NCBI GenBank assembly: GCA_964511175.1
Contig: CAZEEI010000006.1
Location: forward strand, 73 to 64,072
Direction of reading: 5' to 3'
DNA from: an uncultured Pseudomonadales bacterium
Lineage (GTDB): Bacteria > Patescibacteriota > Microgenomatia > UBA1400 > UBA1396
DNA: 64,000 nucleotides
Shown: piece after piece, positions 38,900-61,291 of the stretch
How the letters are laid out: each line of letters opens with the position of its first letter
How positions within the stretch are numbered: the stretch's first letter is position 1
Program-made: the position numbers and the translations under genes
Notes under the pieces: model-generated
Told to the model about the DNA's origin: nothing
The model's input: only the letters and a program-made list of their open reading frames with translations
The model's database searches: none

Positions 38900-39196
38900 A
38901 TGGCCGATTCGCTGCAATCTTTGTTGTCACAGTTTCAGGTCACCACCCAAAACAAGTACATTTCGCAAGAGTTTCAAGAATATGCTTACCGACTGGCCAT
39001 GGCTTTGGACGGCGAAACCAATGCAAAAACGGTGGGAATGTGTATGCGCCTGGTTAAGCGAAAGCCGCGGGCCTTGTTGGAACAAGCGCACAGTTTTATT
39101 CAAGACGCTAAGGCCCGCAACAAGGTTGCGCTTTTTTTGTGGAAATTAAAGCAACTTGAGATCCAATCTCAACCAAAAGTTAGCCAGGAAGATTAA
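38900..39196 (+). CDS. hypothetical protein (98 aa); C-terminus runs into REP-C palindrome
   Basis: ORF only. Confidence 0.35.
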   Translation: MADSLQSLLSQFQVTTQNKYISQEFQEYAYRLAMALDGETNAKTVGMCMRLVKRKPRALLEQAHSFIQDAKARNKVALFLWKLKQLEIQSQPKVSQED

Positions 39197-39735
39197 ACTT
39201 AGAAATATTCCTCTTGAGGAAAACAACGTTGAGATCGAATCTCAATGGTAACTATTCTGATCGCTTTCGCTGTTATTGTTTTTTCGATGGCCAAACTCTA
39301 CACGCGCAAAAAGTTTATCGCTGGCGCTTCTTATCACATTTTTAATCGAGGCAATAATCGATCAGCTATCTTTTTTTCTGAGGCTGATTTTCTGTTTTTT
39401 CGTCAGGCGGCTAACAAGGCTCTGATCAAAGTCGAAGGAGAAGTAGAAACACAAGTTTTCGCCCTGATGCCTAATCACTATCATTTGCTGGTTAAACAAA
39501 AAACGGAAAGGGCTATCAGTAAATTTATGCGTTCGACTATATGTGCCTACGCAAAATATATGAATCGAAAATACCAACGGGAAGGTACTTTGTTTAATGG
39601 TATCTATTGCGCTAAATTACTAACTACGGCAGCGGAAATTACTGCTGTACGCAAATATATTCTAGCTAATCCTGCTGAAGCTGGCTTGGTTGGTTGGCGC
39701 CACGTCGGTTTGCATATCTGAGGTCCAATCTCAAA
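39156..39735 (+). mobile_element. RAYT-REP unit 1: IS200-like tyrosine transposase flanked by TTGAGAT-N3-ATCTCAA palindromes (39156-39172, 39228-39245 upstream; degenerate 39719-39735 downstream)
   Basis: palindromes seen directly immediately bracketing the transposase ORF. Confidence 0.5.
39245..39721 (+). CDS. IS200/IS605-family Y1 HuH transposase-like protein (REP-associated tyrosine transposase type)
   Basis: ~155 aa; HuH motif PNHYHLLV; IFNRGNNR N-terminal motif; C-terminal Tyr (YILANP); two paralogs at 47222 and 60749. Confidence 0.7.
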   Translation: MVTILIAFAVIVFSMAKLYTRKKFIAGASYHIFNRGNNRSAIFFSEADFLFFRQAANKALIKVEGEVETQVFALMPNHYHLLVKQKTERAISKFMRSTICAYAKYMNRKYQREGTLFNGIYCAKLLTTAAEITAVRKYILANPAEAGLVGWRHVGLHI

Positions 39736-39788
39736 TCGGATCTTGTTTGGGTTGTGTCTAGCGAAAAAAACCTCTAGGATATTATTGT

Positions 39789-40364
39789 ATGTTGCGTTGG
39801 CGTAGCGTTTTGGTGTTGGTTGTCTGGTTGACTTTGTTGGCCGTAGGGCGATCCGTGGCGCAAGCCGCCACTTATGCCGTTACCATTTCTAACACCCAGT
39901 TTTCGCCAGCTGCTCTGCAGATATCGGTTGGCGACCAAATTAGTTTCTTCAACTCAACCACCGCCACCCAAAGTGCGGTTACTACCAATACCAGTGGTTT
40001 CAATACCGGCAATATTGGTGCCGGCCAGACTAAGGTAGTAATTGTCAGCTCCCCGGGAACTTTTTCTTATACTTCAGCCTACAATCCCGCCCTGGCCGGC
40101 ACAGTGACGGTCAGCAGCACAAGTACCAGCATCATTGCTACCCCCACCCCTAGCACCACAACCACCACGGTGGATTCAACACAACCCCAACCGGTGTCGG
40201 GTACAGCGGAAATAATGCTAACTTTAACGGCTGCTGGTTTGGCTTTGCTTGGTTTAGGTCTATATACTGCCCGCCATGGCACGGTGGTCGGCAACAATCC
40301 GGTAGTGCACCTTCCCTTGATATCAGCGGCGGAGGTTCAGCCTCATGAGCGTCTCGATCACTAA
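39789..40364 (+). CDS. secreted cupredoxin-like domain protein lacking copper ligands, PT-rich stalk, C-terminal anchor
   Basis: signal peptide; beta-sandwich ending ...NPALAGTVTVS; TPTPSTTTTT; QPVSGT + hydrophobic + RHG. Confidence 0.45.
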   Translation: MLRWRSVLVLVVWLTLLAVGRSVAQAATYAVTISNTQFSPAALQISVGDQISFFNSTTATQSAVTTNTSGFNTGNIGAGQTKVVIVSSPGTFSYTSAYNPALAGTVTVSSTSTSIIATPTPSTTTTTVDSTQPQPVSGTAEIMLTLTAAGLALLGLGLYTARHGTVVGNNPVVHLPLISAAEVQPHERLDH

Positions 40365-40896
40365 TTTTTACCAAAAATTGAGGCGACAACACCCTCATTT
40401 TGCACTTTCTTTGGCCGCAGGACTGCTCTTGGGTTTTTGGCGATCTTGGGGTGAAAGCAGCTGGTGGCTAATTGGTTGGTCGACACTATTGTTTGGGGCA
40501 GGTGTTCTGCTGGCTCAGCTGGTTTTCCTCGGTGATGAAGCCCTACACTACGCGACTCAACAACATTTGCCGCTGGGTAACCCCAGTGAAGTGATGAGTG
40601 ATATTTCACCATTGCGCCGGGGTTATATGCTGCTGGTCTTGCCGGTATTAGCCCTTTTTTTGATTTCTTCGACCCGCGCTACTTTAGGACTAGGCTTCTT
40701 TTGGGGCTTATCCAGCGTCTACTGGTGGGATTTGTGGCGTTACTTTACCGACACTACTGCCCGCGCCCAACTACATCAGCGCTACTTTAACCAATTCCCT
40801 GCAACTTCAGCTTGGGTAACGGGAATATTGTTGGCCTATTTGGCGTACGGTCTGATCCTAACCGTAGTATTGGGGTGGCAGCAGGGAACCACATGA
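40345..40896 (+). CDS. integral membrane protein (4 TM)
   Basis: hydrophobicity; ATGA overlap with lgt. Confidence 0.45.
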   Translation: MSVSITNFYQKLRRQHPHFALSLAAGLLLGFWRSWGESSWWLIGWSTLLFGAGVLLAQLVFLGDEALHYATQQHLPLGNPSEVMSDISPLRRGYMLLVLPVLALFLISSTRATLGLGFFWGLSSVYWWDLWRYFTDTTARAQLHQRYFNQFPATSAWVTGILLAYLAYGLILTVVLGWQQGTT

Positions 40897-42686
40897 ACTT
40901 TTCCTGGTACGGATTATTGATTGGCTTGGCTGTAGTCGTGGCTTTAGTTCTGGCCGAACACCTTCTTTTTCTCACTCGACCGAAAGCGGCCAAGCGAACC
41001 AACTGGGGGCAGCTGGCCTGGGCTATTTTCTTGGGGGGAGTGGTGGGCGCGCGCGGTTACCACGTCTGGACCGATTGGTCACTCTACCGCGCGCGCCCCA
41101 TCACCGCACTATTTATCTGGCAAGGTGGCTTAGGTATCTGGGGCGGCATTGCCGGCGGGTTAATCGGCTTAACCATTTGGCATAAATTAAGTCGCTCTAC
41201 TTGGCGCTGGCTAGAACTAGCCGATGCCGCCGCTATTGTTACTCCCTTCGGCCAAGCAATCGGCCGTCTGGGAAACTGGTGTAACCAAGAAATCTACGGT
41301 CCTCCCACGAATTTACCCTGGAAAATCTGGATTGCCCCTGAGCATCGCTTACCTGCGCTGACCGAACAGGCCTATTATCATCCACTCTGGCTTTATGAGG
41401 CGCTGGCTAATCTCGTCATCGGTTTACTGTTGTATTGTCTGTGGCGCATTAATCGGTCTTGCCGAATTTTTCCTTTTTTCCAATTGGGTTCGGGCGGCTT
41501 TCTGGCTCTGTGGATGTTGGGATATGGCACCGTCCGTTTTTCGCTCGAATTATTACGTTTAGAATCAGCTCTGGGCTGGGGCGGTTTAACCATTGCGCAG
41601 TGGGTGGCGCTGGGTGCGATCGCGGGTGGTTTGAGTTGGTTGGCTGTTTTGGCTCGTCAATCAGTAGCCCGCTTAGCTGGCGCGTTGGCCGGTCTCGCCT
41701 TTCTAATCTGGTCAGCTACTAGCGTTCGGGCGCAAACACCCGTTCCTTTTGACTTATCGATTAGCCCTTCGGTAGTGGAAATAACCGTTAAACCAGGTAA
41801 GTTGGTTACTCAGGCTTTCTTGCTGGAAAACAGTGGTTCGGATGATCTAGAAGTCACGCCAGTGTTGCGCGATTTTACTGCTGACAACCAAACTGGTCGG
41901 GTAGTTTTGCAGGAGGTTGGTACTTTCCCCTACGCTCAACTGGCCAACGCCGAGCAACAACTTAATCAACCCTTCCTTTTACCCAGCGGTGGCAGTCAGC
42001 AACTGGTACTAGGTTTGGATATTCCCGAAAACGCAGTCGAGCGCGATTGGTACTTTACGCTGTTACTAACGACGCGCCGCGCGGCCACTACCTCCCTAAC
42101 TGATTCCGGCGCTGAGGCGCGCGGCGCAATTGGCGCCAACCTTTTGGTACGTATCACCGCTACCGACACCACGCCGTTATCCTGGAACATCAAACTGCAA
42201 CTGCCCCGTTTTATTGACAGTTTGCAAACCCTCACTCCCCACGCCCTCATTAGTAATAACAGCGACACCGTTGCCTCGCCAGAATTGAGCCTGGTCATCC
42301 TCGATTGGAAAAATCAAATTGTCCATCAACAAGATGGCCTGCCAGATCGTATTCTGGCACACAGCAGTCGGGAAATTTGGGCTGCTCAAGCTCGCCGCGA
42401 CGATCCGCGTTCGTTCGACAGCGCGCCCTTTACCTACAATCCACTCCTGGCGCTGGGACCCTACCGAGTCCGCGTCACCATCCGCAACGCAGCAGCTGGC
42501 CCAATGATTGTTGAAGAAACAGTTTGGGCGTTACCTTTTTCCTTATCAGCCGGAATAATCATTTTAGCGATCATTTATTTTTTAGGCCGAAAAAGTGGCT
42601 GGCACTTAACGGCGACGGCGGCTAACCAACCAGGCGAGCAACAGCACCGGCAGCCACAGCGGCGTAAACACCGCCAGCCAGATTAA
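40893..42686 (+). CDS. lgt: prolipoprotein diacylglyceryl transferase fused to C-terminal TM + extracellular beta-sandwich domain
   Basis: Lgt motifs (GARGYHVWTDW, GGLGIWGGIAGG, GNWCNQEIYG) in first ~280 aa; extra ~320 aa with TM and CARDB/DUF11-like beta domain. Confidence 0.75.
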   Translation: MNFSWYGLLIGLAVVVALVLAEHLLFLTRPKAAKRTNWGQLAWAIFLGGVVGARGYHVWTDWSLYRARPITALFIWQGGLGIWGGIAGGLIGLTIWHKLSRSTWRWLELADAAAIVTPFGQAIGRLGNWCNQEIYGPPTNLPWKIWIAPEHRLPALTEQAYYHPLWLYEALANLVIGLLLYCLWRINRSCRIFPFFQLGSGGFLALWMLGYGTVRFSLELLRLESALGWGGLTIAQWVALGAIAGGLSWLAVLARQSVARLAGALAGLAFLIWSATSVRAQTPVPFDLSISPSVVEITVKPGKLVTQAFLLENSGSDDLEVTPVLRDFTADNQTGRVVLQEVGTFPYAQLANAEQQLNQPFLLPSGGSQQLVLGLDIPENAVERDWYFTLLLTTRRAATTSLTDSGAEARGAIGANLLVRITATDTTPLSWNIKLQLPRFIDSLQTLTPHALISNNSDTVASPELSLVILDWKNQIVHQQDGLPDRILAHSSREIWAAQARRDDPRSFDSAPFTYNPLLALGPYRVRVTIRNAAAGPMIVEETVWALPFSLSAGIIILAIIYFLGRKSGWHLTATAANQPGEQQHRQPQRRKHRQPD

Positions 42687-45644: not shown

Positions 45645-45727
45645 GCCGGCTTACCCAAGCGGTCAACGGGGGCAGACTGTAAATCTGCTGGCGTACGCCT
45701 ACGGAGGTTCGAGTCCTTCAGCCGGCA
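45645..45727 (+). tRNA. tRNA-Tyr (anticodon GUA), class II long variable arm
   Basis: acceptor GCCGGCT/AGCCGGC, anticodon stem GCAGA/TCTGC loop CTGTAAA, variable arm TGGCGTACGCCTAC, T-arm GGAGG-TTCGAGT-CCTTC; 83 nt. Confidence 0.8.
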
Positions 45728-45729
45728 CA

Positions 45730-45788
45730 TGAGGGTGCTGAGGGTGTCACCCTCCAGAGGTAGAAAACTTCAGGGTTACACCCTACAA
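45730..45788. repeat. REP family B element (GAGGGTGCTGAGGGTGTCACCCTCCAGAGGTAGAAAACTTCAGGGTTACACCCT)
   Basis: seen directly; abuts 3' end of tRNA-Tyr. Confidence 0.6.
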
Positions 45789-45795
45789 TGGTCGT

Positions 45796-47163
45796 ATGCC
45801 TGCCTCGCTGTTTGATCCAGATTTGGTTAGACTCCTTGAGGGAGACCGACTCATCCTCAGCAAAACTCAGTTCCCGATTGTCACTGTTTCCGCCAGCTTT
45901 CGCGACGTAGTCGAACTACAGCACGCGGTATCGGATGACGTAAATTATCCCGACGTGGTTTTTTCGCGAGCGCATTACTCGATGGCTCTGGCGATTGCCA
46001 TAGCAGCCTGGGGTAAAGAACGTGTTGATCGGGAAAAGGCTTGGCTGGTTGACCCCACTAACTACGTCAACAAAAACGATTGGCAAAAAATTGCCTTTTC
46101 CGAACAAATTGGGCGCATTTTGGCGCGCAATGATTTTTTGGCCTGGATTAAAAAAAATTTAGTCGATCGCTACGGACGCAAAAAACTGCCTATCACCGCC
46201 GCTATCACGCCGCCGCTGCTTTTCCTCACCGAGCAAATCCATCGGCCAATCATCAGCGTACATGACCAAACCGGCAATATCCTGGCAGGAACGGGCAAAA
46301 CAGTGATTCAGGTAGTGACTGATCCCTTCGTGCGTCCGGAATATTTGTACCATGGCGAACTACCCACTATGCACTATTGTGTCTTCGACGAACAAACGCG
46401 AACCGACTTATTAACCATGGCTCAAGACCTGGAGAAAGACGTGCCACCGGAACGGGTGACGGTGACGGGGCCGCCGGTCGATCCGCGTATTGTGGCCGCC
46501 CGTGACCAAAAAAGTGCCGACGGTTGGTATCGCCGCCCACTACACTTGTTATTGACGACCGGCGGCCTAGGCACTAATAAAGAAGAATTACACACTTTGT
46601 TGGAACAACTACTACCTTTAATTCGGCAAAAACCGCTGCCTATCCAGTTGGTTTACTATGCCGGCACTAATGAAGATCACGCCCACATGGTTCAAGACCT
46701 GGCCAAAAAACACGGTATTCGCCTGGCTAATCCGAACGATCAGCATGCCCCATTGCGCCTGCTTTACGCCGACGATGTCGTGGTGGCGAATCAGTATTTA
46801 ATTGTTTATGGCTTCCCATGGGCCGACGTAGTTTTCACTAAGCCCTCTGGCGATATGGCCTACGATGCGGTGGCGGCCGGCTGCGGCCTGTTCTTCCTTG
46901 AACCCTGGGGAGCCTGGGAACGAACTATTCAGCGACTTTTTATTCATCAGGGTTTGGCTCGCAACGCCGAGCCGACCGCCATTGTGGGTCAATTACAAAC
47001 TTTGGCTCAACCCAACCATCGATCTTGGCTAACCGCCAGTATTAATAAGGCGCTTTCACTGCCGCCCACTTACTTGCGAGGAGCCGCCAACATCTTGGCC
47101 GTCGCCCGTCGCGCTGGGAGGGGTCAGACCTTGGCTGGGGTCAGACCCACCCCCTGGGTCTGA
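45796..47163 (+). CDS. GT-B glycosyltransferase, GT28-like (MGDG-synthase/MurG-like)
   Basis: LLLTTGGLGTN and C-terminal TKPSGDMAYDAVAAGCGLFFLEPWGAWE resemble MGDG synthase/MurG motifs; C-terminal residues are read-through of REP-A. Confidence 0.5.
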   Translation: MPASLFDPDLVRLLEGDRLILSKTQFPIVTVSASFRDVVELQHAVSDDVNYPDVVFSRAHYSMALAIAIAAWGKERVDREKAWLVDPTNYVNKNDWQKIAFSEQIGRILARNDFLAWIKKNLVDRYGRKKLPITAAITPPLLFLTEQIHRPIISVHDQTGNILAGTGKTVIQVVTDPFVRPEYLYHGELPTMHYCVFDEQTRTDLLTMAQDLEKDVPPERVTVTGPPVDPRIVAARDQKSADGWYRRPLHLLLTTGGLGTNKEELHTLLEQLLPLIRQKPLPIQLVYYAGTNEDHAHMVQDLAKKHGIRLANPNDQHAPLRLLYADDVVVANQYLIVYGFPWADVVFTKPSGDMAYDAVAAGCGLFFLEPWGAWERTIQRLFIHQGLARNAEPTAIVGQLQTLAQPNHRSWLTASINKALSLPPTYLRGAANILAVARRAGRGQTLAGVRPTPWV

Positions 47164-47186
47164 CCCTGCCATGGGTCGGACCCGTC
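47118..47186. repeat. REP family A cluster (GGGGTCAGACC x4, mixed orientation)
   Basis: seen directly, upstream of RAYT paralog 2. Confidence 0.65.
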
Positions 47187-47221
47187 ACTATGTTGTCAGA
47201 ATTGATTGCTACTCTTAGCGC

Positions 47222-47701
47222 ATGCCTAGTAAAAATGCACGCAAAATTTTTAGGCCACAATCTTTTTACCATATTTATAACCGAGGCACGAAAAAACAAC
47301 CGGTATTTCTGCAGGAGAAAGATTATTGGCGGTGGCGTCAAATATTGGCGTCGACTTTGCTCGAATTTGAAGGCACCATTAGTATTACTCATTTTGCCTT
47401 TCTACCCAATCACCTGCATTTACTTATCTGGCAACAAAGCGAAAGAGATATTACCCGATTTATGAGAAAAATTACTAACCGATATGCGTTTTATTTACAG
47501 AAGGAATACAACTGGGTTGGCCACGTTTTTCAAGGAGTTTACAAGGCTAGTTATTTATACACCAAAAAAGAACGTCGCCGCATTGAAAAGTATATTCTAG
47601 ACAATCCTAAAAAACATGGATACGTCAACTGGAAACACGTTGGTAGAGGGTCAGACCTATGGCGGGGTCCGACCCCAGCCATAGGTCTGACCCCTCCCTA
47701 G
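47222..47701 (+). CDS. IS200/IS605-family Y1 HuH transposase-like protein (RAYT type), paralog 2
   Basis: IYNRGTKKQ and PNHLHLLIW HuH motif; C-terminal residues are read-through of REP. Confidence 0.7.
   Translation: MPSKNARKIFRPQSFYHIYNRGTKKQPVFLQEKDYWRWRQILASTLLEFEGTISITHFAFLPNHLHLLIWQQSERDITRFMRKITNRYAFYLQKEYNWVGHVFQGVYKASYLYTKKERRRIEKYILDNPKKHGYVNWKHVGRGSDLWRGPTPAIGLTPP
47646..47697. repeat. REP family A cluster downstream of RAYT paralog 2
   Basis: GGGTCAGACC...GGGGTCCGACCCC...GGTCTGACCCC seen directly. Confidence 0.65.
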
Positions 47702-51323: not shown

Positions 51324-52694
51324 TTACTGCTTAGGAGTGATGGGCTCAAAAGTAGCTTCAGCCGCAGCCATGGTAGGAGTAGGGGTACGCGGCTCTCCTT
51401 CAACCCGAGGATTAAGTACCACCACAGACATCCCCTGCGATGGTCGACGCAGCTGAGCCTCAAGAGTGGTATCATAGCCCGCCGTTAACTCAGCCATAAT
51501 TAGGTGGCGTAACGCTTCGCTGCCCGGCTGACAAGCCGACTCACCGAATTGCTGGGCGCACTGAGTGTTCAACTCGTGATATTTATGCAGCCAGCCGAAA
51601 GGTGCCACCATGGCCAGGTTTGTGAACGATACTTCATAAGCTAATGAGTCTCCGCCCAGGTAGACCACCAATTGATTGCTACCCTGTTCCGATACCATAG
51701 GATCAAAATACGCATTTGGCAACTCATGCATCCCGCCGTCGGGTCCTTTATAGCTGGAGTTATAATTAACCCCCTTGGGCATTGCCATCGGAGCGGTAAG
51801 AACAACATTAATTACATCACCTCGTACCTCGAAGTCACGTGCACCAGTCTCGTTTTCTCCCAACTCTGGCCACTCCAAAGTTAATTTACTATTGAATATC
51901 GCTTCATCTGAAGAAAAACTAGCCACCGTTAAGGGTTTGCTGGGATCATAGTCACTCCCCAACATAGCCTCGACGATCGCCCCAATTTCCGCCTCAGAAC
52001 CATCTTTCGGCAACATGATACCGGGAAAATCCACCGAGAAGTTTTCCAAATTTTCCAAATTAGCAAACCAATTAATAGTAAACGGCTTTCCGTTAACCAT
52101 AATTTGCATCGTCTTTAATTTCGTCCCCACCACCTCTGGAAATTCAGTCCATTCCGGGTGTTCGGTCAAAACCGATTCCACCTGCGGCACTTGCGTCTCC
52201 TCTACCGTTGGCGTTTCTTTAGCATCCGGTGTAGGTGCTGGTGTAACTCTGGGTTCAGCGGTTTGTAGAAAGGTATTCCCATGTCCTTCCCTAGCCACAA
52301 AACCACTAAACGCTTCCCATTCCGTAGCACCTGGCCGTAGAATCTGGGTAACCTGCCACCAATCATAACCATCGCCAGTATCGGCAACATCAACCACTTG
52401 AAGTTGTGTTCCCGCGGGTAGACTTTCCAAAATGTTAGTGCCCGCAGTACCGACAGTATCGCGAACATTAACTTGCCCTAAAACTTGAACTGTTTGCGAG
52501 GCATCGGGAGTAGCTTCTTGCCCAAAAACAGGCAAAACTTCGCCAGCACCCAGAAGAACCGCTCCTATTGCTCCGGTAGTCTTAGGATGTCTCACTGCCC
52601 AACGGAGCACATCAGCAGGGGCGGTAACAATTCTACGGAAAACCCCTTTTGACCGTTCTGGTTGACCTAGGCTTGCTTCTTTTCCCACTCTCAT
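51324..52694 (-). CDS. secreted hypothetical protein (456 aa)
   Basis: N-terminal signal region; PTPDAKETPT linker; first gene of 3-gene co-directional unit. Confidence 0.5.
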   Translation of the reverse strand: MRVGKEASLGQPERSKGVFRRIVTAPADVLRWAVRHPKTTGAIGAVLLGAGEVLPVFGQEATPDASQTVQVLGQVNVRDTVGTAGTNILESLPAGTQLQVVDVADTGDGYDWWQVTQILRPGATEWEAFSGFVAREGHGNTFLQTAEPRVTPAPTPDAKETPTVEETQVPQVESVLTEHPEWTEFPEVVGTKLKTMQIMVNGKPFTINWFANLENLENFSVDFPGIMLPKDGSEAEIGAIVEAMLGSDYDPSKPLTVASFSSDEAIFNSKLTLEWPELGENETGARDFEVRGDVINVVLTAPMAMPKGVNYNSSYKGPDGGMHELPNAYFDPMVSEQGSNQLVVYLGGDSLAYEVSFTNLAMVAPFGWLHKYHELNTQCAQQFGESACQPGSEALRHLIMAELTAGYDTTLEAQLRRPSQGMSVVVLNPRVEGEPRTPTPTMAAAEATFEPITPKQ

Positions 52695-53086
52695 ATTTAT
52701 ACCCTCTATCCTTTTTCTCTAGGCTCCTATCGCCTAAAATAAAAATCCTACACCCCAAAATACCTTCTATTTCGGCTTATAGGACTCATTAAAACCTGAT
52801 TATAACAGCTCAGCTCACGAAAAAGCAAGCTTCAGCTTTTTGTGAATTGACACTTTTGACTTCGCCAAATGTGTCAACAACTAAAGCGAGAAACACCTGC
52901 TATCCACAAAATGAGTCCATGACTGAGTAGTAAAAACAGGCTCCATCTTCTCTTTGCAACACGACAACCTTTACCCGTTTGTAACTTTTGTCTGTTTTGA
53001 ATTCTGCCTTAAACTCCACTACTGCTTCAAAAGTAAAATAGACGGAACCATTTTGGTAGCAGATGTATTGGTAGGTCCCGGAATCC

Positions 53087-53803
53087 CTAATTGTGACTCG
53101 CTTCGTCTTTTTCTAGTAAAACAATTTTAAATCCGCCCACAAAGTTGGTCATAGCTTTTTGAGAAAACCAACCTATTGGCAAAAATATTACCCTAAATAT
53201 TTCATAAAATAGTAGCGACCTCTTAGGTAGCGGAATATATCCTTCTTTAACCCTCTTAAGTCCTGCCCTGGAGAATAGTCGAATTAATTGATTTTCATTG
53301 TAATGGTGTATATGGCCATACTTAATTCCGCTCTCCTTCCATGGGTCTCGTATTTTTAATTTCCTCAGGATTTTGTTATCGAAAAACGAATCTTCCAGGG
53401 GAACCTTAATAAGTATCTGTCTGCCCAATGTTTTGACCTTCCTTAAGAAAGCCAAATCAGCACTAACATGTTCGAGAATGTCTATACATGTGATTAAATC
53501 GAATTGTTGTTTTGGTCGATAGTTAAAAATGTCAATGTTAATCCATGAGATGGTTTTGGTTGTGTTACATTTTTTTGCCATCTTTATCATTGTTTTAGAA
53601 ATATCTATTCCTACTGTTTTCTGAGAATGTAAAGTGTGGGCTAAAACCGCAGTTATTTTTCCTGCACCACAGGCAACATCTAAGAGACTGTTAACTTGAA
53701 TGTCTCCCAAAAAACTTAAAATCTGTTTGGCTTTCGTTTCTGACTGCTCAAAATGCAGCAGAGGATTTTTTTTAATATATTCATTTTGATAATCCATAAA
53801 CAC
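53087..53803 (-). CDS. class I SAM-dependent methyltransferase
   Basis: motif I LLDVACGAGKITAVLA, motif post-I D-I-S, ITCIDILEHV; AT-rich island. Confidence 0.7.
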   Translation of the reverse strand: MFMDYQNEYIKKNPLLHFEQSETKAKQILSFLGDIQVNSLLDVACGAGKITAVLAHTLHSQKTVGIDISKTMIKMAKKCNTTKTISWINIDIFNYRPKQQFDLITCIDILEHVSADLAFLRKVKTLGRQILIKVPLEDSFFDNKILRKLKIRDPWKESGIKYGHIHHYNENQLIRLFSRAGLKRVKEGYIPLPKRSLLFYEIFRVIFLPIGWFSQKAMTNFVGGFKIVLLEKDEASHN

Positions 53804-53808
53804 CTTGC

Positions 53809-54789
53809 TTATTCTTGGATTGATAAGACATGATCTATAACTTTTTTTGCTGTGGAATTTTGCAAAATAAAAACTTTGGATTCTAGTTCTGAAAAAGGCA
53901 CAAACTCACGAACATTAGTTTCAAAACCATTTTTTTGAGGAATAAAAGGCTTCAGAATATCAACATCTGCCAAATATCGTAGGTGTTGGAACTTAGAAAC
54001 AAGTCGTCCATCCTTACTTAATTCGATAAGTATAGATCCGAGAAATTTCACATTTTTGCAAGTTATTTGTGCTTCCTCAAGCAATTCCCTGCGCAGACAA
54101 TCTTCTGGACTTTCCCCAAGCTCACAACCACCTCCAGGGAGACTAAAATAACCCTCCCCACGGTCTCTAACGATACAAAATTTACCTAATTTATCTTTAC
54201 AGAATGTAAATACCTGTGTTACAGGAATGTTCTTAAGTATTTTATTGGGATGGTAAGTGAACTTTGCCCGATATTTTTGATTTTCAAAACTCTTCACGAC
54301 ATATTTAAGAATTTCCCACATTTGATGATTATCGTCTCTGCTACTCATTAGTAGGAGGGCGTTTTTTGGTGAAAATAACCCCCGCGCAGACGTTTCTAAG
54401 GGCTGCCAATCAGGATCAACCTTTGTTACAAATGAAGTAGTAATTGGCAGAATGCTAACGGGCGGGTATTTTAAGTCTGAAGAATCACGAATATTGTCGT
54501 TCCTAATGTATCCCACTACTCTTATTGATGATGTAGAGATACGTACACCTCCTTCTTCATAAGCTTCTCTAACAAGGGTATCTTGATATGTTTCCCCAGC
54601 CTCAATATGCCCTCCTAGAGGGTTCCACCATCTATTTTTGTCTAGGCACAAGACAACTTTCGTTCCAATGAAGGGAAAAGTAAATGGTGTCGATATTGGA
54701 ATTCCAGAAGGTAGTTTGTCATTTTCAACAAACTGAAAGGTAGTTTCCCTCTTGTCATTTTTTATTGTATATTTTGAATAACTGATCAT
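53809..54789 (-). CDS. tandem Nudix hydrolase (two Nudix boxes)
   Basis: GGHIEAGETYQDTLVREAYEEGGV and PGGGCELGESPEDCLRRELLEEAQI both fit GX5EX7REUXEEXGU. Confidence 0.75.
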   Translation of the reverse strand: MISYSKYTIKNDKRETTFQFVENDKLPSGIPISTPFTFPFIGTKVVLCLDKNRWWNPLGGHIEAGETYQDTLVREAYEEGGVRISTSSIRVVGYIRNDNIRDSSDLKYPPVSILPITTSFVTKVDPDWQPLETSARGLFSPKNALLLMSSRDDNHQMWEILKYVVKSFENQKYRAKFTYHPNKILKNIPVTQVFTFCKDKLGKFCIVRDRGEGYFSLPGGGCELGESPEDCLRRELLEEAQITCKNVKFLGSILIELSKDGRLVSKFQHLRYLADVDILKPFIPQKNGFETNVREFVPFSELESKVFILQNSTAKKVIDHVLSIQE

Positions 54790-54837
54790 AGTTGCTCATG
54801 GATGAGTGAATTGTAGACCTGTGTATTTTTGTAATGC

Positions 54838-55461
54838 TCATGGAGTTGCTTCTTTGATGAACCCGACTGGAGAATCATGAGTAATGACTACAGGTTTTAA
54901 GTACCGGAGCCTGCCAATTCGTTCACCAAAGTCACAGACAGCCGAATATAAGCGAACAGCATAATCTCTATAATTTTCCCCGTATGACAAAAAGTTATCT
55001 TTGAGTTTAGGATACCGAAGTTTTCCGTGAGAATATGGACTACCAAAACGATATAGCAAATTGTGATCGTCGATAAAAGTCTCTGACCAAAAAATTTGCC
55101 ATGCATCAGCGAGTGGTTCAAAAAAATCGCCCGGTCTATATCCAGGGGGGAAAACAAATTTCCCTTGATCTAGTTCTCTTAAATTGTGGTTAATGATCAA
55201 AGAAACTCTAAATTGATCACCAGATTGTATAATTCCTCTTTGAATAATTTGAGCCGTCTCCATTGCTCTCTTTTTGGGAGATGATATTAGTGCAATCCCG
55301 TGGTAATCCTGCTGTTTCGCTTCTTGCACCAACTGGGTACCAAATGCAATGGCTATCCTGTCTTGGTTTGGAGCCAGTGGATTGTCGGTACCATTCTGCA
55401 CAAGATTATCAATATCCTGCAGATGTCTTATAACTGCTAAAGATTCAACTGCTGAAGGCAT
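54838..55461 (-). CDS. histidine phosphatase superfamily (PGM/SixA branch) protein
   Basis: N-terminal VIRH and SSPKKRAMETAQI (RHG / SPLxRAxxTA-like) motifs. Confidence 0.5.
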   Translation of the reverse strand: MPSAVESLAVIRHLQDIDNLVQNGTDNPLAPNQDRIAIAFGTQLVQEAKQQDYHGIALISSPKKRAMETAQIIQRGIIQSGDQFRVSLIINHNLRELDQGKFVFPPGYRPGDFFEPLADAWQIFWSETFIDDHNLLYRFGSPYSHGKLRYPKLKDNFLSYGENYRDYAVRLYSAVCDFGERIGRLRYLKPVVITHDSPVGFIKEATP

Positions 55462-55502
55462 GTGTCGCCATAGTATAATTCATCTTATAGGATTGCACAA
55501 TT

Positions 55503-56645
55503 ATGTTTAACAAAGAAATTGTTCTCTTAACACCAAGAGCTTCCTATTATGTCGGTGGGGGTGAGAAGGTACCAATCAAACAAGCTCAGGAGCTTGCCCG
55601 TCTGGGTCAAAAGGTCCATCTAGTTACTCAGAAAGTACCAGAAAACAGCATGTCCTCAATGTACGGAGATCTTAGGGCCAACAATCAGAGTGGTGTCTTC
55701 ATTCACGAGGTTCCAATTAGAAGGCTTGGTGCCCCACATGTAGTAGATCCAGAAACCGATCCTAGTGTATGGAATTCGGAGAGTTTTGCTTTTGCTTCAG
55801 CAACGATTGGTTTAATGAAAGAAATCGGCCCATATGCCGTGTTGTCTTATTACCTATTAGACGGACTCATTCGCCCTCATGAAGGTAAGAACCTAGTATA
55901 TCTGCTCGGAAATCCACCTGAACCTCTGCAGTTGGGAATTCCTATGATGAGAATGTACGATGCTGACATTTCCATAAGTTCGGTTGTAAAAAATCACTGG
56001 CAGCAGTATGTAACAGAGAGAAAAACGCGTTATTTATTACCCACCGGTGTGGAATTACCTAAAGATTCTGAGCTAAAAAACAAAGAACCTTCAGCGCAGG
56101 TACTATTTCTAGGTAGGCTTATAGAGCGGAAAGGTGTATCAACCTTACTACATGCTTTTTCCAAAGTGTTGCAGGATAACCCTAGTGCCCATTTAACTAT
56201 CGCTGGTGATGGTCCAATGCGTGAGACACTCGAGAGAATGACGAGTGACCTTCAAATGCAGGCCAATGTATCATTCACGGGTTTCGTTAACTCAAAGCAG
56301 ATACAAGAACTTTTCAATAATGCCGATCTATGTGTTTTTCCATCATATGAGGGGGAGGGATTATTGGGCGTAGTCTTGGAATCCATGGCATCGGCTAAAG
56401 CAGTCATTGCAACCACAGGTAACGGAAACGAAGACATAATTTGCTCTGCAGAGAACGGCATTCTCGTTGAGCCTAGAAACGTAGAGATTCTAGCAAAAAA
56501 TATCGAGATACTACTTTCTCATCCTGACTATGCAAAGACCCTGGGAAAACGAGCTAGACAATTTGTCAAAGATAATTTGACCTGGGAGCAACATGTGAAG
56601 CAACTCTTATCCATCTTGGACGCAGTTAATGTTGTTTTTAGATAA
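55503..56645 (+). CDS. glycosyltransferase family 4
   Basis: EGEGLLGVVLESMASAKAVIAT E-x7-E motif; GT-B layout. Confidence 0.75.
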   Translation: MFNKEIVLLTPRASYYVGGGEKVPIKQAQELARLGQKVHLVTQKVPENSMSSMYGDLRANNQSGVFIHEVPIRRLGAPHVVDPETDPSVWNSESFAFASATIGLMKEIGPYAVLSYYLLDGLIRPHEGKNLVYLLGNPPEPLQLGIPMMRMYDADISISSVVKNHWQQYVTERKTRYLLPTGVELPKDSELKNKEPSAQVLFLGRLIERKGVSTLLHAFSKVLQDNPSAHLTIAGDGPMRETLERMTSDLQMQANVSFTGFVNSKQIQELFNNADLCVFPSYEGEGLLGVVLESMASAKAVIATTGNGNEDIICSAENGILVEPRNVEILAKNIEILLSHPDYAKTLGKRARQFVKDNLTWEQHVKQLLSILDAVNVVFR

Positions 56646-56693
56646 GTTCCAATACCTATTGTTTTTTCAACAATACTAAAACTTCCTAAACAA

Positions 56694-56722
56694 CAAAAAA
56701 CCGTCTCAGGGACGGTTCTTTG
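56694..56722. terminator. hairpin ACCGTC-TCAGG-GACGGT flanked by A6 and T-rich tract (bidirectional terminator candidate)
   Basis: seen directly 50 nt after GT4 stop. Confidence 0.4.
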
Positions 56723-56783
56723 CTTGCTTCTTCCCGATTGGGAAGGGCACCTGTCTGATAAGGAATGTATGGAAAATATTCCC

Positions 56784-56850
56784 TTTTGTCAATCCCTTGT
56801 ACAGGTCACACACCTTTGGCACTACCGTCACTATGGGGTCAGATTTGGCT
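56784..56850. repeat. ~70 bp repeat, copy 1 (TTTTGTCAATCCCTTGTACAGGTCACACACCTTTGGCACTACCGTCACTATGGGGTCAGATTTGGC)
   Basis: diverged copy of 57424-57495 / 58063-58155. Confidence 0.5.
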
Positions 56851-56949
56851 GATAGAAATAAAGCGTGACCTACCAAATCGACCAGTCGGGAAAAATCGAA
56901 CAAACGGAAAGAAATACGGTTATTGCTTGCATCAACGGCAACACCATAG

Positions 56950-57336
56950 TTGTTTTTCTGGATAAAAGAGAAAAGAGAAAAAAGAAAACTGCAAAGATTT
57001 TTCCGAAGCGCCGGCCTGACAAAACTATTTCCTTACCTAACTTTCGCCGCACTTCTGGCCTTGGTGTTGGCAAGACTGGATACCACCCAAAAGATAACTA
57101 TCGATCGGGAATATCTTGGCCACGAGGACCTGATTGAGCAAAAAATCAAAATCTATACAGCTGCTTTAGGAATAAAAAGAACAATTTATCTGCAATTTGG
57201 GCATGTCGGTAAATTATCTCGGGCTCATCAGTTGGCCTACCGGGTGGCTCGCGGCAAAATTACGGCCAACTATGTCGCACACGCCAACGAAATAATACAG
57301 ATGATCACCGGAACAAAAAAGATCGGGACTACCTAA
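56950..57336 (+). CDS. hypothetical protein (128 aa)
   Basis: ORF only, AT-rich island. Confidence 0.3.
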   Translation: MFFWIKEKREKRKLQRFFRSAGLTKLFPYLTFAALLALVLARLDTTQKITIDREYLGHEDLIEQKIKIYTAALGIKRTIYLQFGHVGKLSRAHQLAYRVARGKITANYVAHANEIIQMITGTKKIGTT

Positions 57337-57423
57337 CTCAGGATTGTTTACCTGGCGATCAGTAATCTACCGACCTTTTATGGCCTTTAATCTAGCACGT
57401 CAAGAGTTTTTTGTCAAAAATTT

Positions 57424-57495
57424 TATGCAGGTCACGATACATTTGGCACTACTGTCATTATTCGGTCAGCTTTATCAGCTAAAAATAACTCTGTT
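57424..57495. repeat. ~70 bp direct repeat, copy 2
   Basis: ~90% identical to 58084-58155; immediately upstream of NYN gene ATG at 57500. Confidence 0.55.
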
Positions 57496-57499
57496 AGTT

Positions 57500-58018
57500 A
57501 TGCCATCGACAAAACATCTCTCCTGTACTACTTATGCCTTTATTGATGCCTCCAATATTATCTATGGCGCCCGCTCGGGAAATTGGTTAATCGATCAACA
57601 AAAATTGTACTATTACCTCCAAAACAAATATCAAGTTACTAAAGCCTTTTTTTACTACGGCAAAGATTCGAATAGTCTAAAAAAAGAGCGGTTTCTGCAT
57701 AAGTTAAGCGTGTTTGGTTACATCTTGCGAGTCAAAACAATCAAGCATTTCGGCCATAAAGCGAAAGCTAATTGTGATGTCGATTTGACGATGGATATGC
57801 TTTTATTCAGAAACCAATATAGTCGGGCAATTGTTCTCTCCGGCGATGGTGACTTTACACCTCTGCTGGCTTACTTAATTAAGCAGGGAAAACAAATTAT
57901 TGTGATTACCTTTCCTGACCGAACCGCTCGAGAATTAAAAAAATTGTTGGGCGGAAAAGTGCAATCTTTTAATGACCTGCGCGCTCTACTTGAGTACAAA
58001 AAAAGAGGGAGGCCCTAA
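57500..58018 (+). CDS. NYN-domain (LabA-like PIN-related nuclease) protein
   Basis: YAFIDASNIIYG ... CDVDLTMDMLL ... AIVLSGDGDFTPLL; start placed at MPSTKHL (listed ORF starts 57344 inside the repeat). Confidence 0.65.
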   Translation: MPSTKHLSCTTYAFIDASNIIYGARSGNWLIDQQKLYYYLQNKYQVTKAFFYYGKDSNSLKKERFLHKLSVFGYILRVKTIKHFGHKAKANCDVDLTMDMLLFRNQYSRAIVLSGDGDFTPLLAYLIKQGKQIIVITFPDRTARELKKLLGGKVQSFNDLRALLEYKKRGRP

Positions 58019-58062
58019 AGTAGTACCTTCCCTCAGTGTTATGAATTAATAGTACTAATAAA

Positions 58063-58155
58063 GTCTTGTTTTGTCAACTTTTTGTACAGGTCACAATACA
58101 TTTGAGACTACTGTCACTATTCGGTCAGCTTTATCGGCCAACAATAACTCTGCTC
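58063..58155. repeat. ~70-90 bp direct repeat, copy 3
   Basis: TTTTGTCAACTTTTTGTACAGGTCACAATACATTTGAGACTACTGTCACTATTCGGTCAGCTTTATCGGCC... Confidence 0.55.
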
Positions 58156-58471: not shown

Positions 58472-59536
58472 TTAATTCGCCAGATTGTGCAGATATTGGC
58501 CGCAAACATACGCCATGAAATCGGTTGGCCGGCAAGCAAAACTGGTGTTTTCGCCCTGACAAAGAAACAATTTATTGTCCTGACAAAGGGCAAAATCAAA
58601 GGCAGCGGGCGCTTCTTCCTGATAAAACTCGGCTGCGGTTAGATTGCCGCCGCCAACCTTAACCGTAAAATCACTGGCGGTACTATCGCTGGGATAACCG
58701 AACACCGCGTAGTACCCATTGGTGATCCGCCCTTCTTCCCCCATTACAGATAAAGCTACATCCGGAGCGACATTAGTTAACAAAACATAAGCCAAAACCT
58801 GACCCTGCGGCGACAAACCGGTGGCCGCCAGTTGTTGGGCTAAGTTGTCACTAGGTAGGGCTTCACTGTCAATCAGCCAACGCTGCAAATCGCCGGCTAG
58901 ACGATCGACATCCAAGGTAACGACCTCGCCACTGGACCCGGCATAAATGTTTAATCTTTGCGCCTCTTGGTAAATCGAATCGATGAGAAAGTAGAGAAAG
59001 GCGGGATTAAGTTGATGTTGTTCGGCCGCCGTAAAAATGTGCACTAGCGAAAGATAATAGGGCTGAGTTTCAGCCTGATTTTGATTGGCGCCACGGTAAA
59101 AAGTGAACAGGGCGCCGCGATGAACGAGGATGCGGCCCCAGGCGTAATGACGCGCGCCAACAAAGTATTCGGTGACCCCCCGACCGACGATCGATATTTG
59201 TTTAGCCGATCCGCTGGCTGGTGCCAAAACAAGTTTAGAGCAGAGATATCTGGTGGCTAAAAAACAAGGCTTGGCGAGAAGAGAAAAAGGCTCGGTGAGT
59301 GTGGTTAGCTGCTTGCGGCGTAATTGATCTGGAGTTTGGGGAAGAAAAGCGGTTGGAGTGATGGTTGGCAGCGGCGTGGGTGTTGGCTGAGAGCCAAGGC
59401 CAAATTGGGGCAAACTGATATTTAGGGAAAAACCTAGTCCGCCGCCGGAGTTTAACCACCAAGACCGAGTAGCCGCGCCGGCAGCTACCCCCACTACTAA
59501 TAAAACAACCAATAACAGCGCGCGACGCCAATTCAT
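58472..59536 (-). CDS. secreted/membrane-anchored hypothetical protein (354 aa)
   Basis: N-terminal MNWRRALLLVVLLVVGVAAGAA signal anchor. Confidence 0.5.
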   Translation of the reverse strand: MNWRRALLLVVLLVVGVAAGAATRSWWLNSGGGLGFSLNISLPQFGLGSQPTPTPLPTITPTAFLPQTPDQLRRKQLTTLTEPFSLLAKPCFLATRYLCSKLVLAPASGSAKQISIVGRGVTEYFVGARHYAWGRILVHRGALFTFYRGANQNQAETQPYYLSLVHIFTAAEQHQLNPAFLYFLIDSIYQEAQRLNIYAGSSGEVVTLDVDRLAGDLQRWLIDSEALPSDNLAQQLAATGLSPQGQVLAYVLLTNVAPDVALSVMGEEGRITNGYYAVFGYPSDSTASDFTVKVGGGNLTAAEFYQEEAPAAFDFALCQDNKLFLCQGENTSFACRPTDFMAYVCGQYLHNLAN

Positions 59537-59545
59537 GTGGTCTTA

Positions 59546-59645
59546 GTTTAGCACGCTGAGGGTGTAACCCTCCAGAGGTGGGAAACTTCAGGGTGACACC
59601 CTGTCGCGATTTACCTCTGGAGGGTTACACCCTCAGCGTGCTAAA
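59546..59645. repeat. REP family B: ~100 bp element with perfect 33-bp inverted arms (TTTAGCACGCTGAGGGTGTAACCCTCCAGAGGT ... ACCTCTGGAGGGTTACACCCTCAGCGTGCTAAA)
   Basis: seen directly; fills the divergent intergenic region between 58472-59536 and gap. Confidence 0.65.
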
Positions 59646-59655
59646 CTGGCCGTAT

Positions 59656-60717
59656 ATGTCAAACATTGCTATCAACGGTTTTGGCCGCATCGGCCGCACG
59701 TCTTTTCGAGTTTGGTGGGAGAGATTTCGCGACCGCAGCGCGTTGGTGGCGATCAACACTTCTGGTTCTGCGGAGTTGGAAGCTTGGGCTCATTTGCTCA
59801 AATACGATACCAATTACGGTGTTTGGCCGCACGAAATTCGGGTTAACCGTTGGCGCAGCGTGAAGGAATTGGACGATAACAACTGTGAACTAGGTACTTT
59901 CGAAATTGAGGGGCGCACGATTACCGTTACCGCTCAACGCGACCCGGCCAAAATTCCCTGGGGCAAGTATGGTGTCGATATTGTCATTGAATCGACTGGT
60001 GCTTTTCTGACGCAGGAAAAAGCTGGCGCACACCTGAGCGCCGGTGCCAAGGCTGTAATTCTTTCTGCTCCCGCCAAAGAAGACGATATTGAAACGGTGG
60101 TGCTAGGAACCAAGCCCGAGCATCCGAGTCTGCCGGCCAACCGCATTATTTCGAACGCCTCCTGTACGACTAATTGTGTGACGCCGGTGGCGGCCATTAT
60201 GCACGAGACTTTTGGTGTGCAAAAAGCCCTCATGACCACGGTGCACGCCTATACGGATGATCAAAATGTTCAGGACAACTCGCATAAAGATCTGCGCCGC
60301 GCTCGCTGCGCGGCGCGCAATATTGTACCGACTACCTCTGGTGCGGCCAAAACTACGGGTAAAGTTATACCGGAGTTAGCGGGTATTTTTGATGGACTGG
60401 CCATTCGCGTTCCAGTTTCCACTGGCTCTTTGTCCGATTTGACCTTTGTTACCTCCCGACCGACTTCGGTGGAGGCTGTAAACCAAGCCTTCATTGACGC
60501 GTCCCAGTCCGAACGCTGGCGCGGGATTTTGGCCGTAACCCACGATCCGATCGTGTCGCAGGATATTGTAGGTCGCCCCGAATCAGCGATTGTTGATTTG
60601 GCTCTAACGCAAGTAATTGGTGGCGATTTAGTTAAGGTAATTGCCTGGTACGACAACGAGTGGGGTTATTGCAACCGCTTGATTGAACTGGCTGAGGGTG
60701 TCACCCTCCAGGCGTAG
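59656..60717 (+). CDS. gap: glyceraldehyde-3-phosphate dehydrogenase
   Basis: MSNIAINGFGRIGR NAD-binding start, active-site SNASCTTNCV; start set at ATG 59656 (listed ORF begins inside REP). Confidence 0.9.
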   Translation: MSNIAINGFGRIGRTSFRVWWERFRDRSALVAINTSGSAELEAWAHLLKYDTNYGVWPHEIRVNRWRSVKELDDNNCELGTFEIEGRTITVTAQRDPAKIPWGKYGVDIVIESTGAFLTQEKAGAHLSAGAKAVILSAPAKEDDIETVVLGTKPEHPSLPANRIISNASCTTNCVTPVAAIMHETFGVQKALMTTVHAYTDDQNVQDNSHKDLRRARCAARNIVPTTSGAAKTTGKVIPELAGIFDGLAIRVPVSTGSLSDLTFVTSRPTSVEAVNQAFIDASQSERWRGILAVTHDPIVSQDIVGRPESAIVDLALTQVIGGDLVKVIAWYDNEWGYCNRLIELAEGVTLQA

Positions 60718-60741
60718 AAAACTTTAGGGTGTAACCCTAAG
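60691..60741. repeat. REP family B element
   Basis: GCTGAGGGTGTCACCCTCCAGGCGTAGAAAACTTTAGGGTGTAACCCTAAG overlapping gap stop. Confidence 0.6.
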
Positions 60742-60748
60742 TAATCAT

Positions 60749-61213
60749 TTGGTCAGTTTCTTTGGTTACACTCTTTCCATGCCACAAAAAAATCGTCTCT
60801 TTCCTTTCGTAGCTGATGCCCATTACCACATCTACAATCGCGGCACTAATCGACAAGAAATTTTCTTAGATGACAAAGATTACTGGATTTTTCGCCATAT
60901 TTCGAGAAAAAAACTAAGAAACTGTGGCGACGAAATATCGCTGATGGTTTTTTCTTTGTTGCCGAATCACTACCATTTTTTATTGCATCAAAAATTGGAG
61001 CGCAGTATTTCGGCATTTATTAAGTCGATTGCAATTCGTTATGGCATGTATCTACGTAAAAAATATGACCACGATGGACGGGTTTTTAGTAGTAGCTATC
61101 ACGCTGTTTTGCTTCCCAATCAAGAAGCTATTGATCAGGCCAAAGAATACATTTTAAAAAATCCGATTAAGGCCGGTTTGCTTAACTGGAAACACGTTGG
61201 GAGCAAGATATAG
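60749..61213 (+). CDS. IS200/IS605-family Y1 HuH transposase-like protein (RAYT type), paralog 3
   Basis: IYNRGTNRQ, PNHYHFLLH HuH motif, C-terminal YILKNPIKAGL. Confidence 0.7.
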   Translation: MVSFFGYTLSMPQKNRLFPFVADAHYHIYNRGTNRQEIFLDDKDYWIFRHISRKKLRNCGDEISLMVFSLLPNHYHFLLHQKLERSISAFIKSIAIRYGMYLRKKYDHDGRVFSSSYHAVLLPNQEAIDQAKEYILKNPIKAGLLNWKHVGSKI

Positions 61214-61291
61214 GGTGTAACCCTCCAGAGGTGGGAAACTTCAGGGTGACACCCTGAGATTTTCTACGCCTGGAGGGTTACACCCTCAGAG
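61212..61291. repeat. REP family B element (nested palindrome) between convergent RAYT and pgk
   Basis: AGGGTGTAACCCTCCAGAGGTGGGAAACTTCAGGGTGACACCCT...CCTGGAGGGTTACACCCTCAGAG. Confidence 0.65.

Follow-up and report, generated by a model that had tools for sequence, protein, structure and literature searches.

We analysed a 64-kb window of contig CAZEEI010000006.1, to which the repeat counts and gene surveys of the source genome given below are confined, and found that three mutually divergent genes for Y1 transposases resembling the REP-associated tyrosine transposases (RAYTs; REP, repetitive extragenic palindrome), here called R1, R2 and R3, have palindromic repeats on either side that belong to another family in each case: family C for R1, family A for R2 and family B for R3. 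The region very probably comprises three systems of the REPtron type, in each of which a single-copy RAYT is accompanied by its own cognate palindromes, and families A and B would have spread as non-autonomous elements like REPs or REPINs (REP doublets forming hairpins) to gene ends and to the flanks of tRNA genes. When the 12 repeat clusters were placed randomly on the 73 gene junctions in 200,000 trials, 0.33% of the placements produced a trio of bracketed genes with a separate family for each, and demanding that those genes be the three RAYTs brings in a further factor of 1/59,640. Family-specific bracketing of exactly the three Y1 genes is far beyond chance. This permutation of junctions, together with the enrichment of the repeats over shuffled sequence and their folding into hairpins, bears out the claim of an earlier first-pass annotation that each paralog lies between palindromes of its own family. 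The same annotation had regarded families lying equally near all three RAYTs across the genome as evidence to the contrary; within the window the immediate RAYT flanks are family-pure, whereas an assignment by nearest RAYT is not, because a family B cluster at 45742–45783 lies 1.4 kb upstream of R2.

Three transposase genes and three palindrome families

Open reading frames (ORFs) carrying the IxNRG and PNHxHxL motifs of HuH enzymes start on the plus strand at 39245, 47222 and 60749, as had been annotated, and correspond to R1 (39245–39721), R2 (47222–47701) and R3 (60749–61213), the last of which lies between the gap and pgk genes. The ORF of R1 opens with the ATG at 39245, and the conserved protein (P0003 on record) is likely to start at Met 39287 and to be 144 amino acids (aa) long; the ORF of R3 (P0001) opens with the TTG at 60749, and a likely start at Met 60779 again gives 144 aa. 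R2 counts 159 aa, of which the C-terminal 17 derive from the downstream family A cluster (47648–47701), into which its reading frame extends. All three ORFs are uninterrupted on translation, which disposes of the degenerate pseudogenes that had been considered earlier. Exact look-ups of the proteins returned only short contigs from Logan (SRR8925769), which are 100% identical and stem from the same organism. Each RAYT is single-copy in the window, where tblastn found no fourth gene, further copy or fragment, and no neighbour of the size of tnpB accompanies R1–R3 there.

The three proteins share 40–44% pairwise identity and the motifs YHI[FY]NRG, PNH[YL]H[LF]L and YIL[ADK]NP. The HuH motif reads NHYH in R1 and R3, which fits NH[YF]H, and NHLH in R2; the tyrosine motif reads YILANP in R1, YILDNP in R2 and YILKNP in R3; and an FQ motif is present in R2 only, the corresponding residues being FN in R1 and FS in R3. 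Quentin et al. defined class 2 of the TnpA-Y1 family, which contains all TnpA-REP/RAYT proteins, by Y-x3-NP, and the IS200 type by Y-x3-Q (PMC6006769). HUH and Y-x3-NP are both present in R1, R2 and R3 and are invariant across the paralogs and their relatives, and by motif the three are class 2 TnpA-Y1 proteins. All match Pfam Y1_Tnp with E-values of 1e-10 to 1e-11, and for all the best NCBIfam model is REP_Tyr_transpos (NF047646, an equivalog model), with 48.3, 40.8 and 43.1 bits for R1, R2 and R3 against a cutoff of 80 bits.

R3 was modelled with AlphaFold2 (AF2) from an alignment with 50 relatives at high confidence (pLDDT 93), and the top match of the model in the PDB is 4ER8_A, E. coli TnpA-REP (YafM) bound to a REP hairpin, with a TM score of 0.77 and a root-mean-square deviation (rmsd) of 2.1 Å over 137 columns at only ∼17% sequence identity. 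Superposition on the IS608, ISDra2 and IS200 transposases gave TM scores of 0.50–0.61 and rmsd of 4–12 Å. A search of the PDB by sequence profile ranks the two groups the other way (ISDra2 TnpA, E = 5e-5; 4ER8, E = 0.18) and cannot separate them. Thus R1–R3 are predicted from the model to fold like TnpA-REP, and the earlier description of the genes as RAYT-like agrees with the tyrosine motif, with the best NCBIfam model at its below-cutoff score and with the nearest fold.

Repeats were counted as matches with permitted mismatches and compared with dinucleotide shuffles of the window. Family A (GGGTCWGACC, ≤1 mismatch) has 33 matches against 4.9 expected, family B (GGGTGWMACCC, ≤1 mismatch) 28 against 3.6, and family C (TTGAGAT-N3-ATCTCAA, searched as TTGAGATNNNATCTCAA with ≤2 mismatches) five against 0.17; no shuffle reached any of the observed counts. 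Units of family A (GGGTCNGACC[CT]) are spaced by 17 or 18 nt and those of family B (GGGT-N3-ACCC) by exactly 31 nt, and in both families units of alternating orientation pair with each other. A full family B element measures 78 nt and has an arm (GAGGGTGTMACCCTCCAGAGGT...) on one side of a central palindrome (GGGTGACACCC) and the inverted arm on the other, a three-part plan that recurs in the downstream family A cluster of R2. Elements of families A and B account for all of the six longest local inverted repeats in the window, and most A and B clusters fold as single-stranded DNA with z-scores of −4 to −14 relative to shuffles, the two family B half-elements folding more weakly (z = −2.1 and −3.8). 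Family C is much weaker than either, with a 7-bp stem and a 3-nt loop. A reading of the regular units as a CRISPR-like or tandem array was rejected because successive units point in opposite directions and form hairpins with each other. In an Rfam scan, only three tRNAs were matched and no RNA family covered the repeats.

Around R2, four GGGTCNGACC units at 47121–47183 with 17-, 18- and 17-nt spacing form one nested hairpin upstream of the gene (−28.7 kcal/mol, z = −5.7), and the downstream cluster at 47648–47693, which lies within the end of R2, combines two inverted arms with a central GGGGTCCGACCCC palindrome (z = −8.6). Upstream of R3 there is a family B half-element at 60696–60737, made of one arm and the central unit, and downstream a full 78-nt element at 61212–61289 with units 31 nt apart (z = −8.2), whose outer end holds the stop codon of pgk (61286–61289). 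The neighbouring gap gene (59656–60717) is also flanked by family B on both sides, with the half-element at one end and a full element at 59545–59647 at the other; the latter has 35-nt perfectly complementary arms, and 59545–59645 folds at −47.8 kcal/mol (z = −14). R1 has two family C copies upstream, TTGAGATCCAATCTCAA at 39156–39172 within the 3′ end of ORF 38900–39196 and TTGAGATCGAATCTCAA at 39229–39245 immediately before the gene, and a third copy, CTGAGGTCCAATCTCAA at 39718–39734, which overlaps its stop codon, is degenerate with two mismatches and forms only a weak hairpin (z = −0.4).

Away from the transposases, family A forms a cluster of three units at 7672–7716, at the stop codon of a GH15-like gene (7716–9692, minus strand) with no transposase near, and a doublet at 25212–25241 with a 13-bp stem and a 4-nt loop (z = −6.6), between smpB and a small convergent ORF. 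Family B has a full element at 20904–20981 (z = −10.5 for the fold of 20899–20982), between ORF 20982–21551 (minus strand) and the 5′ end of a tRNA-Ile gene, and the half-element at 45742–45783 directly 3′ of a tRNA-Tyr gene (45645–45728). The dispersed copies that had been annotated for A and B therefore stand, at positions that agree, with two transposase-free clusters for A and three for B, the third of which is the element at 59545–59647. That for C is less secure: the single match, TTGAGATTCAATCTCAT at 25584–25600 in the final codons of a DsbA-like ORF (25578–26267, minus strand), has one mismatch and borderline significance, is doubtful, and may be due to chance.

The genes of the window are very tightly packed, and the clusters sit at gene ends or beside tRNA genes, most of them at 3′ ends or between convergent genes. 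As a result of such overlaps the repeats also encode protein ends outside R2, namely ∼7 residues of GAPDH (60696–60717) and ∼14 residues of the product of ORF 45796–47163 (47121–47163).

Several observations concern the surroundings of these elements. The divergent gap of 119 nt at 59537–59655, between ORF 58472–59536 (minus strand) and the gap gene, is nearly filled by one 103-nt hairpin, which leaves scant space for conventional promoters; the true start of the gap gene is the ATG at 59656 and not the GTG at 59578. The tRNA-Ile gene that a family B element adjoins on its 5′ side (20825–20899) has the anticodon TAT (UAU), seldom found in bacterial genes of this kind. Inside smpB, TAAGGGTCTAACCCTAGT at 25000–25017 is a family A unit with one mismatch, either an intragenic half-site or a chance match.

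A short branch of the RAYT family

Relatives of R1–R3 in genomes and metagenomes are mostly proteins of 200–240 aa that have a tail of the W-SS-Y type and the motifs NH[YF]H, FQG and YIHLNP, and the named longer relatives come mostly from Patescibacteria. Subclass 2.1 of Quentin et al. (2018), which is the same group as the TIRYT/TIRtron proteins of Di Nocera et al. (2013) and RAYT group 1 of Bertels et al. (2017), has been described as having a median length of 238 aa, NH[YF]H, FQ and Y[IV]HLNP motifs, a proximal SS motif and a C-terminal domain like a helix-turn-helix (HTH) (PMC6006769), and judged by their sequences the longer relatives carry the marks of this group. R1–R3 belong instead, on sequence comparison, to a rare and undescribed short branch (∼144 aa) beside these longer proteins. 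Its members end at NWKHVG, share 32–58% pairwise identity, and comprise R1–R3, P0004–P0009, P0011 and the protein of locus L002. An exhaustive profile search of 1.84 billion representative proteins yielded ∼25 full-length clusters (at 50% identity) of the short type, against 13,351 matches to the whole family at E ≤1e-10. The host of the window is likely to be a member of the Patescibacteria. The small genome assumed in the first-pass annotation is suggested indirectly by the close packing of the genes, by a relative's contig of 1.08 Mb and by the predominance of Patescibacteria among the named relatives. The first-pass annotation had proposed a phylogeny of the three RAYTs; in a crude neighbour-joining (NJ) tree the window paralogs are not mutual closest relatives.

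Bracketing by palindromes extends beyond the window. For 73 foreign loci with a RAYT homolog, the 300-nt 5′ and 3′ flanks were compared by their longest common exact word, with segments 1.2 kb farther out as controls. In 61 of the 73 loci the flanks share a word of 13–92 nt, which is usually a palindrome and is specific to the locus, and in the displaced controls the common word was never above 12 nt. Hence a gene with repeats on both flanks is a property of the wider clade. Within the short branch, for example, P0006 is flanked by palindromes of the GGGTTAACCC type, P0007 by GGCCTAGCCCATAGGCC palindromes, and P0008 by 65-nt inverted repeats built of GAACGC-N-CCTAGG-N-GCGTTC units. The loci L002–L081 encode 200–240-aa homologs like those of subclass 2.1, many from metagenome-assembled genomes of Patescibacteria, and are mostly bracketed by palindromes. 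Their neighbouring genes show no synteny with the window in the 80 named loci.

The repeats of related enzymes also resemble each other in their cores. P0004 is the closest relative of R1 (58% identity), and its 1.4-kb contig contains seven copies of GATC[CG]AATC, the apical core of family C; in the window this word is confined to the two family C copies upstream of R1, and across 734 kb of other loci its frequency is 0.02 per kb. Cores of the form GGGT-N(2-3)-ACCC accompany R2, R3 and P0006. As far as these sequence matches go, related enzymes carry related repeat cores.

Genomes with a similar pgk gene were compared with the R3 locus. In L114 (PGK 83% identical), a three-unit element of the family B type starts in the pgk stop codon, as it does in the window, with arms that read AGGTGCCACCT where those of the window read GGGTGTAACCC; the contig ends inside this element. 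Among four aligned elements of this type, six of the 30 stem pairs are altered on both sides. In L107 (PGK 65% identical, part of a 1.08-Mb contig), a RAYT of the short clade is convergent with pgk, as R3 is, and at 9854–10637 the RAYT and a tRNA gene lie together between inverted repeats of 65 nt with 95% complementarity, beside 23S–5S rRNA genes. A second dispersed family in L107, AGGAGGGTCSGACCCTCCTGAGGTAGTTTAC (AGGAGGGTCSGACCCTCC...), recurs with a 31-nt period in six copies over 20 kb (2819–20271) with no RAYT in view, and combines the framework of family B with the core of family A. In L116 and L118 (PGK 70–72% identical), neither a RAYT nor a repeat family was found in the 21 kb around pgk. 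A universal position of the RAYT next to pgk was therefore rejected, and inheritance is patchy; retention in L114 and L107 together with absence from L116 and L118 indicates that the systems are old but patchily kept.

Known systems and alternative explanations

The arrangement is of a known kind, a REPtron or TIRtron-type RAYT, because genomes with several RAYTs and their own repeats have been published. Quentin et al. stated as a rule that the several RAYTs of one genome each have their own repeat family (PMC6006769), in Pseudomonas fluorescens SBW25 three RAYTs lie next to REPINs of three types, GI to GIII (PMC3116915), and PMC3733652 describes several RAYT or TIRYT genes with their own repeat families in Koribacter, Stenotrophomonas and Rhodopirellula, including three such genes decorated by different repeats in Koribacter versatilis. 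Hence the first-pass annotation, which had called three co-resident systems unusual, was only partly justified. What is new here is narrower, namely an undescribed minimal branch of the enzyme, palindromes that are non-canonical and have strict phasing, the packing of repeats into the gene ends of a very compact genome, three systems in 22 kb, and a host that is likely to belong to the Patescibacteria, for which no description of REP/RAYT systems was found in the literature searched.

The window resembles the REPtrons of E. coli (YafM/TnpA-REP) and SBW25 in having a single-copy HUH/tyrosine gene with clusters of its own palindromes on both sides, in the dispersal of those palindromes as inverted doublets, in divergent paralogs within one genome that each have their own family (PMC3116915; PMC6006769), and in Y-x3-NP and a predicted fold nearest to 4ER8. 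It differs from them in the low identity of the proteins to 4ER8 (∼17%) and their scores below the NCBIfam equivalog cutoff, in hairpins that lack a GT[AG]G foot, in 11-nt palindromic cores that recur at a fixed distance of 17 or 31 nt, in elements of three units arranged around a central palindrome, in the overlap of elements with stop codons and C-termini where genes are tightly packed, and in the closeness of the three systems.

Some of these differences, and other findings, weigh against the interpretation as three REPtron-type systems. With scores under the cutoff of REP_Tyr_transpos, the proteins do not count as equivalogs of its curated members. In subclasses 2.2, 2.4, 2.5, 2.7 and 2.8, the hairpin of a canonical REP has GT[AG]G as its 5′ foot (PMC6006769); this foot is absent in families A and C, and in family B a GT[AG][AG] lies 7 nt 3′ of the core, within the long stem and off the hairpin foot. 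Atypical REPs without GTAG are nevertheless accepted for subclasses 2.6 and 3 (PMC6006769). The genes of subclass 2.1 were reported to have no REP-like neighbours in a survey of complete genomes (PMC6006769). In the 64 kb surveyed, family C may be little beyond a set of gene-flanking repeats. The absence of RAYT and repeats at pgk in L116 and L118 also counts here, as does the fact that arm changes on both sides can stem from both arms copying one master, so that selection on the hairpin is not required. Moreover, mobilisation of the repeats by the adjacent enzyme would follow by analogy with known systems.

Under the interpretation as REPtron-type systems, each enzyme would recognise its family's hairpin where the DNA is single-stranded, for which the replication fork is the most plausible place, cut beside it by means of the HUH-bound metal and the YILxNP tyrosine, and then rejoin the strands. 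Such cutting and rejoining would copy or move hairpin doublets, and the RAYT gene itself would stay in place and be inherited mainly vertically. These steps are modelled on the biochemistry of E. coli TnpA-REP (PMC3479197; PMC8266576).

Of the other explanations, the one that survives best, unlikely as it is, holds that each gene with its flanking inverted repeats is a mobile cassette of the TIRtron/TIRYT type, that three such cassettes were acquired horizontally and separately, and that the palindromes found elsewhere represent solo ends or miniature derivatives of them and not a REPIN population maintained by vertical descent. The likeness to the TIRYT/subclass 2.1 group is real in part: the HuH motif is of the NH[YF]H type and an FQ-type motif occurs (only partly, given NHLH in R2 and FQ in R2 alone), the nearest sequence neighbours with 200–240 aa and a W-SS-Y tail fit, and the start of family A, GGGGTCAG, fits the GGGGWSAS consensus of TIRYT terminal repeats (PMC6006769; PMC3733652). 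The RAYT and tRNA gene of L107 within almost fully complementary 65-nt repeats would fit such a cassette, and both the placement of the paralogs in the NJ tree and the lack of a RAYT at pgk in L116 and L118 would suit separate acquisitions. On the other hand, the window proteins differ from subclass 2.1 in ending at NWKHVG without the C-terminal tail (SS motif, HTH) and in reading YIL[ADK]NP and not Y[IV]HLNP, and their repeats are self-complementary, clustered and dispersed, unlike a subclass described as having no REPs. A short-clade RAYT beside pgk in two genomes whose PGK proteins are only 65% identical, and the pgk-stop element kept in a third (L114), speak against such cassettes, as do the single-copy state of each RAYT with no fragments in the window and the dispersed copies, which are full hairpin doublets or triplets in regular phasing and not single ends. 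The palindrome-bracketed loci contrast with the published statement of no REPs for subclass 2.1 and agree with the TIRtron description (PMC3733652).

It is very unlikely that the three genes are ordinary IS200/IS605 insertion sequences, with the palindromes as subterminal hairpins of their left and right ends and the dispersed copies as miniature inverted-repeat transposable elements. The window proteins do share with the TnpA of IS608 and ISDra2 an HUH/Y1 fold, a similar size (∼145–160 aa) and the Pfam family, recognition of hairpins on single strands would be common to both by analogy, and the sequence-profile matches in the PDB favour ISDra2 TnpA over 4ER8. However, their tyrosine motif is Y-x3-NP (class 2) and not Y-x3-Q (PMC6006769), and the NCBIfam IS200 model, with a cutoff of 55 bits, gave only 14–18 bits (17.5 for R1, 14.5 for R2 and no listed match for R3). 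The structural match favours TnpA-REP, superposition on IS200/IS605 enzymes being poorer; the window contains neither a tnpB partner nor identical or near-identical copies; and the same repeat unit is clustered on both sides, together with transposase-free hairpin arrays elsewhere, in place of distinct left and right ends.

Least probable of all is that the palindromes are primarily regulatory or structural elements of the host (terminators, mRNA stabilisers or protein-binding sites), next to which a Y1 gene would say nothing about mobilisation: most clusters do lie at gene 3′ ends or between convergent genes, and REPs elsewhere have such secondary roles (PMC3733652), but family-specific bracketing of exactly the three Y1 genes exceeds chance by far and recurs with different palindromes at the 61 homologous loci, most units have no T-tract after them, one element fills a divergent promoter region, and a promoter and terminator scan of 38.8–48 kb gave counts at the level of shuffled sequence, so that a terminator was dropped as the primary explanation.

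Beyond the interpretation as three REPtron-type systems, a broader reading can be offered tentatively. A rare short clade, probably in ultra-small genomes like those of Patescibacteria, might keep co-evolving pairs of enzyme and hairpin side by side, with elements staying at orthologous sites, the pgk stop codon among them, as paired changes let the sequence of the family as a whole drift. The cores that are related in relatives and yet shifted, GGGT-N3-ACCC for R2, R3 and P0006 and GAT-CSA-ATC for R1 and P0004, would form part of this reading and are put forward with the same reserve. If it is true, the region offers a compact natural system in which the code of RAYT–hairpin recognition can be read, and it is evidence that 'replicators' of the REPIN type persist in heavily streamlined genomes.

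RAYTs and REPINs are the main example of a single, vertically inherited transposase that serves a population of short hairpin repeats, and detailed work on them has been done almost entirely in Proteobacteria. Here the same organisation is seen in a very compact genome of an uncultured lineage, with a minimal enzyme of 144 aa that lacks the accessory tail. The three pairs of enzyme and repeat are near enough to each other to be cloned together, which would allow a clean 3 × 3 experiment on specificity. The present loci also suggest that the 'no REP' label of subclass 2.1 does not hold for its many members in Patescibacteria. Moreover, repeats of this kind may explain breaks in short-read assemblies, such as the end of the L114 contig within its B-type element.

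Other repeats and composition of the window

A scan of metagenomes with the family B arm gave 23 single matches, mostly due to chance and none from the source organism. In L102, an unrelated metagenome contig of 1.3 kb, positions 800–850 read CCTGGAGGGTGACACCC followed directly by GGGTGTCACCCTCCAGG, a perfect palindrome of two arms like those of family B, which hints at related elements in other organisms.

Short repeats of the GGCGTTGG type occur at 12408–14142, 21687–21766 and 31073–31299 inside large ORFs on the minus strand, where they would encode linkers rich in Pro and Thr; they are unrelated to the REP families. A conserved element of ∼50–90 nt precedes three consecutive small genes that include an NYN-domain gene (56812–56861, 57402–57493 and 58061–58152). 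Two of its copies are 80% identical, and a weaker match lies at 47169–47218, just upstream of R2; its motif, GTCACTAT..GTCAGA..TTG, is possibly a promoter or a leader. The GC content falls from ∼0.50 to 0.40 across 52000–58000, a block with a GT4 glycosyltransferase gene and the NYN genes, and is 0.35–0.37 at the two ends of the window (1–2000 and 62000–64000), and these low-GC blocks may represent foreign or differently constrained DNA.

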